NCBI GenBank assembly: GCA_951406725.2
Contig: OX597830.1
Span: 43,896,001 to 43,960,000 of the forward strand
DNA from: Octopus vulgaris
Lineage: Eukaryota
DNA: 64,000 nt
Direction: 5' to 3'
Shown here: positions 3,801 through 6,800 of the stretch, piece after piece
Numbering within the stretch: the first letter of the stretch is position 1
Layout: every line of letters begins with the position of its first letter
Translations under genes and position numbers: made by a program
Notes under the pieces: generated by a model
The model's database searches: none
What the model saw: the letters and a program-made list of their open reading frames with translations, nothing else
What the model was told of the DNA's origin: nothing

Positions 3801-6800
3801 TAATAGTCCACCAGGACGCCTTGACCATATATTTTGTAACCACAGTTTCATTCCATTTTCGTCCATCCAGCCTTTTTCGTGAACATGAACTAGTACACCT
3901 CTTGGAATTTTATCCTTAGGCTGAGTTTTTCTCTTAAATATCAAAAGAGGTGGCAGTTTTAAGCCATCAGCACAACAGGCCAGAGCTACTGTATAGTGGG
4001 TCTTTTCGTGGCCAGTGGTTTTTATCGAAACCATTTTAGACCCTTTGACACTCACAGTCCTGTTGGATGGTACATCAAATGTGAGTGGGACTTCGTCCAT
4101 ATTCCCTATTTGGCCCAGTTCAAAACAAGTTTTCTTTCTTGCATTTATAACAAATCTATGAAAATCTAATATTTTTTCTTCATAATCAGCTGGCATTTTT
4201 TGTGCAATGGATGTTTTTGTACGCATTGATAAACCCTTCCGTTTCATAAACCTGTAACACCAACCTTCTGTTCCTGCAAAGTTCTGTCTCCCTCGTTGTT
4301 CTGCTACTCTCATGGTCTCATGAATTATCATTTTGGTAGATACACTCCTCCCTGAGTTTCTCTCATCAAGCACCCACGTTTTTATATCATCCTCAAGTTC
4401 TAGCCAATGTGGGGCTGGGCAACGAAGGTTATGTTTACCTTTCTGTGCTCTCATCAGCTGCTCTTCTTGCTGTCGCCAGACACGTATCATCTTTTTTGTA
4501 GGTGGTGGCCCAAAAACCCTTGCTGCTGCTCTATTTCCATGCTCCTTGGCATAATCTACCACTCGTAGTTTGTAGGAGATTTTGTAGCTTGATCTTTTTG
4601 CTGCCATAGCCGTGAGGGTGCTTGTACTGTTGTAGTGTGTTTTGTAATGATCATAAACTTTGTTGTACCAAGATATCCAACCTACCTCTGTATATACACG
4701 AACTCGCAACGATCATGTGCATTCCATAGTTTTACTCCTCACCGTCAGATGGCATCGAGTTAGGGTTCCGATCAGCTGATATTAGTAAACGTGTGTCATG
4801 GATCGCAGCCTAACAATTTACGGTAGATTGCTTTGATTTTTACGATAATTCGTATTTTAAAGTAATAATACTGGTAATAATAATAATAATAATACTAGCA
4901 ATAAAATAATGATGCATGAGTACGGAAAATATCATTAAGGCGTTAGCGTAGGTAGAAATACTTTCGTAAGCTAGGTTAGTGAGCGTCTGGGAGAAGATTA
5001 GCCTACAGGAGGGTCTTGACTTCGCATATTAGACGCAGGGCGAATTTTTGAGCCAAATTTTTTGGAAAAAAGTGCGTCCTATATGCCGTCAAATACGGTA
5101 ATACTTCCTGCTATGGAAAAAAAAAGAACATTATTTATGTTTGATGGATATTTGTCCTCATCTTGTTTGTTAACACAACATTTCAGCTGATATACCCTCC
5201 AGCCTTTATCAGGTGTCTTGGGGAAATTTCGAACCTCGGTTCTCATTCCTAAGGTATTTTTCGATGTTAATATTATTATTATTATTCAGATTACTGCTGG
5301 CCATACGGCATAGTGGTTAAGAGCGCGGGCTACTAACCCCAAGATTCTGAGTTTGATTCTAGGCAGTAACATGAATAATAATAATAATAACATCGAAAAA
5401 TACCTTAGGATTGAGAACTCAGGTTCAAAATTTCCCCAAGACACCTGATGAAGGCTGGAGGGTATATCAGGTGAAACGTTGTGTAAACAGCAAACGAGAT
5501 GAGAACAATTATCCGTGAAATGTAAATAATGTACATAATTCTTCATCTTTTACATATAGAACTGCAAAAAAAAAGGAAGTTTCAGTGAAATTGATTAAAA
5601 TGTGACTCCCCATGCCTGTGGAATGTAAAAAGCACTATCCAAACATGGTCAATGCCAGCAACCCCTGCCCCAACTTGCTCCTGTGCTAGTAGCATGTAAA
5701 AAGCACCATCTGAATGTGGCCAATGCTAGTGGCATGTAAAAAGCACCCACTACATTCTTGGAGTGGTTGGCATTGGGAAGGGCATCCAGCTGTAGAAATA
5801 TTTCCAGATCAAACTGGAGCTTGGTGCATCCTCAGTCAAATCGCCCAACCCATGCCAGCATGAAAAACAGACGATAAATGATGATGATGTAACAGCTGTC
5901 GAATTGTTTGTGTATAATATTGTCAAACTAACTTAAAACCTACAAATCATGCTTCTGGCTGAAAGATCCTTGTTTGACTAAATTCATCATCATCATCTAA
6001 TATTTATGTTCTCTGCTGGCAATAGGCTGGATTGTTTGATAGGATCCAATAGGCTCTACTGTCTGTTAATTGTATAGTAGCAAAACAAGTTAGCACTATT
6101 TTGTTGTGGTGGCATAGTACACTGTGCTATGCCCAAAACATCCAATCACTGCTGGCCATGGAAGGATATATATGACCTAGCAGTGAAGCACAAGTTTTGA
6201 AAGGCAATAATCAGTTCCTGAGAAGTCATCAAGATGTAAACACATCAGTTGTTTGTCCAGATGACAAAACATTGTTAAATTAACACCGTTCAGAAAGCAA
6301 CATTCATACAACTATGGAATTTCTACCTCACCTCACAACCACTACAAAACTCATTGGATTTTTTAGATTTGCAGCCAAGTACTGAATCTAACTACCTTGA
6401 TTTTATTAAGAAATTCACTCATGTCTCGCTACACCCTGTTGCCTTAAACACTTATCTCTGATATGCCTACTGCTTTATGTGTGACCATGGAATAAATTGT
6501 GATGTTCATTCGCAGAAAAAACCCATTGTCTTCTGATATTTAATAGTACATTCATGTATACATTTTACAATGTTGTCACATCCAAAAACTTAGTGAAAAC
6601 CTCAAATTGGTGTTACTATGTGATCCTCTATATGAGTAGTCATGTACCTCCTCTGCAGCAAGAAACCTGTTCTGTTCCGGCCCTTTTCTCTCTTACTTTA
6701 ATCTCCTCTACTCCTCGTCTCCTAACATGAAGTTGCCCACCTCAGGGCTTATGATCCTGCAAGCTTCATGGTGACATGAAAATAAGACCCCAGTACATAT

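Follow-up and report, generated by a model that had tools for sequence, protein, structure and literature searches.

What kind of element left a tRNA-like sequence between two inverted arms, each bearing a hammerhead-like motif, at positions 5128-5564 of the window (the whole stretch of 64,000 nucleotides of Octopus vulgaris DNA analyzed here)? The original prediction, made from the letters of the window, was a Pol III-driven, ribozyme-bearing non-autonomous element, a SINE/retrozyme hybrid mobilized by the reverse transcriptase (RT) of a Penelope-like element (PLE). A 269-nt family unit aligned to both arms, confirming that the tRNA-like head forms the loop between them: since the forward match covers unit positions 1-269 and the inverted match 65-237, the arms are ~170 bp long and the head is left as the loop. 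The head-to-head pair is bracketed by a 10-bp target duplication (A9G), which the prediction had not mentioned, and its predicted fold-back has an energy of -250 kcal/mol. The head is not an insertion peculiar to this locus, an outcome that would have undone the prediction, because its pattern has 2,708 genome matches. The tail pattern has 5,037, and a hammerhead tail lies no more than 870 nt downstream in 61 of 70 head-anchored copies. The locus is what is left of an insertion, now dead, in which two pseudo-LTR copies from an abundant Penelope-type family lie head to head (see the table).

Table. Features of the PLE-derived insertions in the window (positions are those of the whole window; unit, the 269-nt family unit)
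Feature	Position	Strand	Remark
Left target-site duplication (A9G)	5117..5126	+	Longest shared flank word AAAAAAAAAG
Inverted pseudo-LTR copy, 5'-truncated, unit 65-237, short 3' end, without tail	5128..5297	-	92% to family majority
Damaged minimal hammerhead, inverted arm	5172..5217	-	Core G8 and stem III changes
Forward pseudo-LTR copy, unit 1-269, from tRNA-like module to long (tail) end	5299..5564	+	92%
tRNA-derived module	5299..5373	+	~62-67% identity to host tRNA-Arg/Thr genes
Box A of module	5306-5316	+	One change in window copy
Box B of module	5351-5359	+	One change in window copy
(AAT)n microsatellite	5374..5391	+	Length variable between copies
First ~51 codons of PLE ORF; frame continues through hammerhead and tail	5411..5564	+	Start-codon position mutated in forward arm
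Minimal type I hammerhead, forward arm	5440..5485	+	Stem II damaged
One-sided PLE tail, unit ~238-269	5533..5564	+	
Right target-site duplication (A9G)	5566..5575	+	Pairs with 5117-5126
Second, older head-to-head insertion of the same family, without head; inverted 92-269, forward 79-185	26392..26659	.	84-85% identity

Hammerhead-like motifs were located where they had been predicted, in both arms and at ~26624-26660, the last being much decayed. As had also been stated, each window copy carries mutations: stem II is mismatched in the right arm, core G8 is changed in the left arm, and the third copy lacks stem I. The composite motif assembled from these three copies proved real, as its exact 39-mer occurs 1,218 times in the genome and the reversed control does not occur at all. 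A descriptor of the core plus stem I matched once in the window, compared with 0.02 matches per shuffled window (100 shuffles). In the forward arm, the core occupies 5445-5451 and 5473-5476, an extra A precedes stem II, a palindromic ACGT replaces helix III, and the predicted cut falls after 5480. The family majority columns contain a conserved core, helices I and II and the palindromic helix III, identifying the motif as the minimal type I hammerhead of Penelope-type elements, as proposed. The free position N7 varies across copies (T/A 127:32), and the motif is intact in 13 of 64 sampled arms and in no window copy. An Rfam search of the window for a hammerhead or tRNA returned nothing at E<=5 and ARAGORN found no tRNA there, so the window labels "hammerhead" and "tRNA" rest on motif and alignment. 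In the available text of PMC4209133, minimal hammerheads of metazoan PLEs have an extra base after A9, a G10.1-C11.1 pair and a palindromic helix III, all shared by the octopus family, and pairs on opposite strands are described; helix II is 5 bp here versus 7-8 bp there, and the octopus motif is otherwise an ordinary member of this group.

The 269-nt unit adjoins a coding sequence at both ends. It lies directly 3' of an ORF encoding RT and GIY-YIG domains in 22 of 30 ORF loci, and a direct unit immediately precedes the ORF start in 25 of the 30 ORF-start loci examined (from 42 matches). An inverted unit was found at the 5' break in 20 of 30 RT loci, the best 30 of 151 matches, and in several copies sequence coding for RT and GIY-YIG precedes the head. 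A frame opening at unit ~116 crosses the hammerhead and the tail into the ORF, with the hammerhead within the N-terminal codons; this N-terminal frame is 47% identical over 101 aa (E 2e-26) to the N-terminus of P0003, a 55% homolog. Since the unit adjoins the ORF on both sides and the frame is continuous, the unit is the pseudo-LTR of a 2.63-kb autonomous element of Penelope/Poseidon type, whose repeat order is ORF (RT, then GIY-YIG), stop, ~25 nt, tRNA module, (AAT)n, ~20 nt and the next start codon. Two other candidates were rejected at this stage. GIY-YIG Pfam matches considered as the unit's partner came mostly from a different family, of Neptune type, and had no match in the unit, and a short GT..AG intron in the tail was discarded because the unspliced frame is kept in P0003 and no such joint was seen among the RNA-read joints listed.

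A YVDD RT and VYSIPCSCGRLYKGET...H...H (GIY-YIG, CCHH) can be read in copies of the element, in a single ORF with the endonuclease (EN) C-terminal. In a profile search, the protein of locus L141 matched RVT_1 at 27.7 bits (E 2.7e-6), under the curated cut-off of 29.6, and gave no Pfam GIY-YIG match; the endonuclease label therefore rests on the motif. There were 2,735 protein homologs at E<=1e-30, a few of them with PF01541. The RT-EN linker of L141 has no CX2-5CxxC Zn-finger, whereas the finger is present in L067, from the other PLE family of this genome; such a linker finger is given as a trait of Neptune/Nematis in the accessible part of PMC8557442. The finger-less linker points to the Penelope/Poseidon clade. 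The family looks dead or dormant, because all 30 RT loci either fall short of full length in one frame or contain stops (longest open frame, 569 aa) and its copies lie ~8% from the majority. Contigs under four organism labels (runs X15-X17 and X20) contain the unit together with the ORF-end junction, indicating that the family is common to related species; a search of metagenome contigs found no P0003 relatives.

The ends of the copies carry the marks of PLE integration. Among 96 head-to-head insertions from sampled loci, a few of which may be counted twice, 88 combine one long end (~269) with one short end (230-259, mostly 237-244). A flank word of at least 8 nt is shared in 60 of the 96, compared with 4% in shuffled pairings, and insertions are flanked by 8-14-bp duplications. 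The long/short ends and flank duplications support the original view of the inverted duplication as a PLE insertion signature, and the inverted arms, one-sided tail, duplication and ORF continuity likewise support its attribution of the insertion to a PLE RT. Tandem or inverted pseudo-LTRs, a one-sided tail and a target duplication, the marks of EN+ PLEs, were all found in the family. According to the accessible text, the inverted pseudo-LTR, one-sided tail and duplication have been described for EN+ PLEs (PMC3846280; PMC8557442), and Anolis Poseidon nicks both strands and starts cDNA synthesis at two sites inside the RNA, which between them delimit the tail (PMC11167929).

The remaining question is what the tRNA-like module did for this element. 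The best explanation of the locus, to which we assign a probability of roughly 0.6, is a pair of pseudo-LTR copies of a Penelope-type family whose tRNA-derived module, judged from its sequence, likely served as the Pol III promoter of the element. Alternatively, the module may be carried along as a passenger, such as an ancient retrocopy of tRNA origin that became fused, (AAT)n tail included, to the 3' side of the stop codon. Transcription would then come from Pol II, using either the TATAA at -28 or a promoter inside the element, or from read-through, and the pile-up of 5' ends described below would reflect a Pol II start or palindrome joining; we consider this unlikely, though it is the strongest of the alternatives.

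When compared with 10 host tRNA genes, the module gave z scores of 4.9-6.5 for five of the Arg/Ala/Thr/Cys genes and of 0.4-2.1 for Lys, Glu and one Thr. Arg, Thr and Ala tRNA genes scored alike as its parent, in a comparison that drew on 30 tRNA loci of 7 isotype classes. By column majority, the family's box A and box B read TGGCGTAGTGG and GTTCGATTC, which agree with the type 2 Pol III promoter consensus. With both boxes at consensus in the family majority, the predicted resemblance of the head to a Pol III promoter was borne out. The module moreover makes up most of the only non-coding stretch of the element (~140 bases); both this position and the consensus boxes argue against a passenger. 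Elsewhere, seven clustered tRNA-Cys-like genes, two with variant anticodons, were seen at L226:138-2854.

We mapped 5' ends in 90 arms, namely the first 90 of the 5,037 exact tail-pattern matches, all on contig C1. Among the 38 arms reaching +10 of the module, 28 end within -18..+10 and 10 continue into the ORF; with the strict interval -10..+10 and a second reference, 22 of 38 arms were counted versus 5% expected (P 2e-19). Across copies, 5' ends concentrate between -5 and +9 of the module. The base at -5, 13 nt ahead of box A, is a G preceded by a T, and TATAA is found at about -28; TATAA ~28 nt before -5 fits Pol II as well, in line with a passenger module. In many short copies the start is also preceded by its own mirror image, which measures 4-97 nt in 30 copies and at most 8 nt in 16 of these, as though a cDNA terminating at -5 had turned back on itself. 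These fold-backs begin 5 nt ahead of the module, and a genome search for this -5 form returned 369 matches (some palindromes being counted on both strands), compared with 0 for a -14, longer-hairpin form that would be possible from extended cDNA. This difference counts against the passenger alternative.

Two features of the junction favor the passenger. Its hairpin is the strongest local structure, outranking every other 30-nt hairpin in stability in 4 of the 5 ORF-linked copies, and two long cDNAs that annealed at the junction palindrome and were then trimmed could mimic part of the pile-up; the available text of PMC3846280 describes palindromes at PLE pseudo-LTR 5' ends and mentions no tRNA head. 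In addition, 5 of the 7 ORF-start copies whose upstream repeat reaches +10 pass beyond the module, so many long templates began elsewhere, and RNAs that were multimers or had started upstream served as templates too. A second 5' peak at (AAT)n, comprising 21 of the 90 arms, was rejected as an element start since it is largely due to further repeats inserted in the microsatellite. In three of these arms (L269, L287 and L289), as well as in L056, the head is found farther upstream in the same orientation.

Runs of four T (T4) are absent from all 2,634 majority columns of the whole repeat unit (median depth 57, minimum 5), where base, synonymous-codon and dinucleotide shuffles gave 4.7, 2.7 and 2.5 expected runs (P 0.007, 0.03 and 0.07, respectively). 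Single copies contain 0.40 T4 runs per kb versus 0.60 in simulated decay. The 13 control ORFs were near expectation, with 7 runs in 1.8 kb for the Neptune-type PLE of the same genome but 0-1 T4 runs per kb in several unrelated A-rich ORFs; further Poseidon families were sought as T4 controls, and the matches were mainly the octopus pseudo-LTR family itself. As a sign of Pol III, the T4 deficit is suggestive only and weak under the dinucleotide null, and P values of up to 0.07 are compatible with a passenger. The 2.63-kb unit contains no AATAAA, and a unit without a polyadenylation signal counts against that alternative. In three RNA-seq runs, the unit was several hundred-fold deeper than the ORF, the two strands being covered equally and neither read starts nor read ends forming a peak on the unit; equal-strand coverage fits passive transcription in host RNA and is silent on Pol III. 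Among indexed runs, no RNA run was listed with the unit.

With the module as a Pol III promoter, transcription would start at the G five bases before it, and Pol III would read on into the ORF because the unit has no T4 terminator. The PLE protein would nick both strands of an AT-rich target, and each nick would prime cDNA synthesis at sites inside the RNA (unit ~237-244 and 269), as reported for Anolis Poseidon. When priming occurs on the first pseudo-LTR, the cDNA would reach the RNA 5' end after ~270 nt, and two such cDNAs, or a short snap-back at GCCC/GGGC, would join head to head, so that the short copies would be by-products of the autonomous RNA rather than a SINE lineage of their own. 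Transcription of the element's entire coding RNA by Pol III is conceivable from its sequence but somewhat doubtful. Equally tentative is the joint reading, in which an autonomous element would have swapped its promoter for a tRNA-derived one, its whole 2.6-kb RT-endonuclease message would have been made by Pol III and translated uncapped, and ~270-nt run-off cDNAs would have produced tens of thousands of SINE-like copies; a Pol III-made message would, within this reading, account for the lack of a T4 run, an intron and a poly(A) signal.

A further alternative, which we regard as improbable, is close to the original prediction: a self-propagating Pol III SINE/retrozyme whose short copies are self-transcribed, owe renewed mobility to PLE protein acting in trans, and yield RNA that is processed by the hammerhead. 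Short copies do outnumber ORF-linked ones (the ORF junction is present in 14 of 70 head-anchored copies; junction matches, 543 vs 401), possess both boxes and no T4, and are slightly nearer the majority (0.929 vs 0.914, the two sets having been picked differently). In the accessible text on Adineta, moreover, pseudo-LTR sequence alone can mobilize passenger DNA in trans (PMC3846280). However, a comparison of 106 short with 64 ORF-linked copies revealed that all majority alleles are common to both and that no column has a fixed difference, although the sets were ascertained differently, with slightly greater divergence and more frequent deletions among the ORF-linked ones. Since no diagnostic differences separate them, no separate SINE lineage is seen. 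The 5' extensions also differ from copy to copy and are not inherited. According to the available text, the Anolis Poseidon template must include ORF sequence located ~55-60 nt beyond the site of priming (PMC11167929); by analogy, solo copies would be without it. Internal deletions of at least 20 nt were observed in 31% of the 64 ORF-linked and 5% of the 106 short copies, a difference that may reflect ascertainment; the ORF-linked copies concerned are the 3' pseudo-LTRs of L121-L150 and L341-L370.

In the tail-anchored sample, only 2 of 90 arms have their 5' end at unit 181-195, around the predicted hammerhead cut site; this lack of a pile-up gives no sign of retrozyme-like processing, and hammerhead-cut RNA was rejected as a template because no pile-up occurs at unit 186. 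No read starts or ends at the cut site were found in the three RNA-seq runs; a few RNA read joints go back 55-58 nt, one of which is also present in DNA contigs. In the available text on Anolis Poseidon, hammerhead mutants leave in vitro insertion unaffected (PMC11167929), and by analogy the hammerhead is probably dispensable for insertion of the octopus element. Unlike the tail-anchored sample, inverted arms beside ORF fragments often start at unit 174-195, near the cut (186), as seen at L124, L129, L130, L144, L148, L149, L165 and L168.

The family does have the tRNA-derived head with boxes A and B of a SINE, but a lineage separate from the partner's own repeat was not found, the unit being the partner's pseudo-LTR plus its coding start. 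Nor do the copies form the non-coding head-to-tail tandems with cleavage-set ends of retrozymes; they are solo or head-to-head, they end at PLE priming sites, and the unit is partly coding. The proposed non-autonomous SINE/retrozyme hybrid was therefore not upheld, as the unit is the autonomous element's own pseudo-LTR and its hammerhead overlaps the N-terminal codons of the ORF. In the simplest reading, the short copies derive from run-off cDNA whose synthesis began within the first pseudo-LTR of the autonomous element's RNA. A LINE-mobilized SINE that captured a PLE fragment, to which 9 of 70 head copies ending in (AAT)n with no tail nearby might be ascribed, is very improbable and largely refuted by the inverted arms, the one-sided tail and PLE ORF continuity on both sides, tail-less or head-less copies being largely due to later insertions into (AAT)n.

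According to the parts of the reports available, the octopus family shares with Anolis Poseidon PAc (PMC11167929), Adineta Pen2a (PMC3846280) and D. virilis Penelope (PMC2377424) a single ORF with RT and C-terminal GIY-YIG and no Zn-finger linker, partial tandems, an inverted 5' pseudo-LTR, a one-sided ~30-bp tail and 8-14-bp duplications, together with a hammerhead overlapping the ORF start and a promoter expected in the pseudo-LTR. In contrast to the same descriptions, only the octopus family has a box A/B module filling most of its non-coding DNA, 5' ends that cluster at a start resembling that of Pol III, a unit free of T4, and an ORF that requires no intron. The one mapped PLE promoter in the literature surveyed, that of D. 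virilis Penelope, is described in the accessible text as lying within the pseudo-LTR and as internal, TATA-less and LINE-like (PMC2377424), which is a point for the passenger; the octopus family adds a compact candidate promoter. The Schistosoma SINE-like repeats Sm-alpha and Sj-alpha resemble it in having Pol III-type promoters beside type I hammerheads (review PMC6765202, consulted in part), and non-LTR retrozymes in their link to PLE pseudo-LTRs (PMC7761336; bioRxiv 10.64898/2026.07.22.740005, excerpts). As these sources describe them, both are non-coding tandems processed by ribozymes, whereas the octopus unit is part of a coding element, occurs in inverted pairs and has no cut-site ends in our sample. 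tRNA-derived SINEs have a similar tRNA head with boxes A and B and 5' ends near the tRNA +1, but the 3' part of the octopus unit is a PLE coding start, its scars are PLE-type and no separate lineage was detected. Ohshima and Okada reportedly described octopus tRNA-derived SINE families in 1994, from which the unit is set apart here by its structure and insertion scars.

Inverted arms, one-sided tail, duplication and hammerhead are already known for PLEs; apparently new, in that we did not find it in print, is a tRNA-derived box A/box B module opening a PLE pseudo-LTR. Our search of the full-text literature returned no title or abstract on such a promoter in a PLE pseudo-LTR, and Repbase, Dfam or the octopus repeat library may hold the family. 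The available text of a 2026 octopus repeat annotation (PMC13282606) contains neither "hammerhead" nor "ribozyme". The family bears on PLE transcription, the origin of inverted ends and the role of the hammerhead, and thousands of insertion scars mark a probable RNA 5' end. If Pol III did make the full coding RNA, this would be an unusual Pol III-transcribed protein-coding mobile element, and would offer a route from PLEs to SINE-like repeats, itself standing naturally midway from a PLE to a SINE driven by one; with the module as a passenger, the locus would be an ordinary PLE stub. Short pseudo-LTR copies are likely annotated as SINEs.

Several other repeats were observed. The (AAT)n of the pseudo-LTR is a landing site for non-LTR elements with a C-terminal CCHC finger and a REL-type endonuclease, presumably R4/Dong-like, which split the head from the tail (L046, L054, L056, L057, L060, L204, L269, L287, L289 and others), and at least two further repeats also sit there. 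The second PLE family, of Neptune type (L067, L072 and the cluster L065-L090), is young: its copies are nearly identical and many retain an intact 781-aa frame. Its 3' region contains repeated TGATGACGTC units. In the window, two fold-backs unrelated to the PLE family, with 232-nt and 200-nt arms of 94% identity, lie at 6564-7203 and 51846-52444, the loop of the latter containing a CCCTAACCCTAA stretch, and a 23-bp minisatellite of 63.5 copies with 93% matches occupies 29359-30817.
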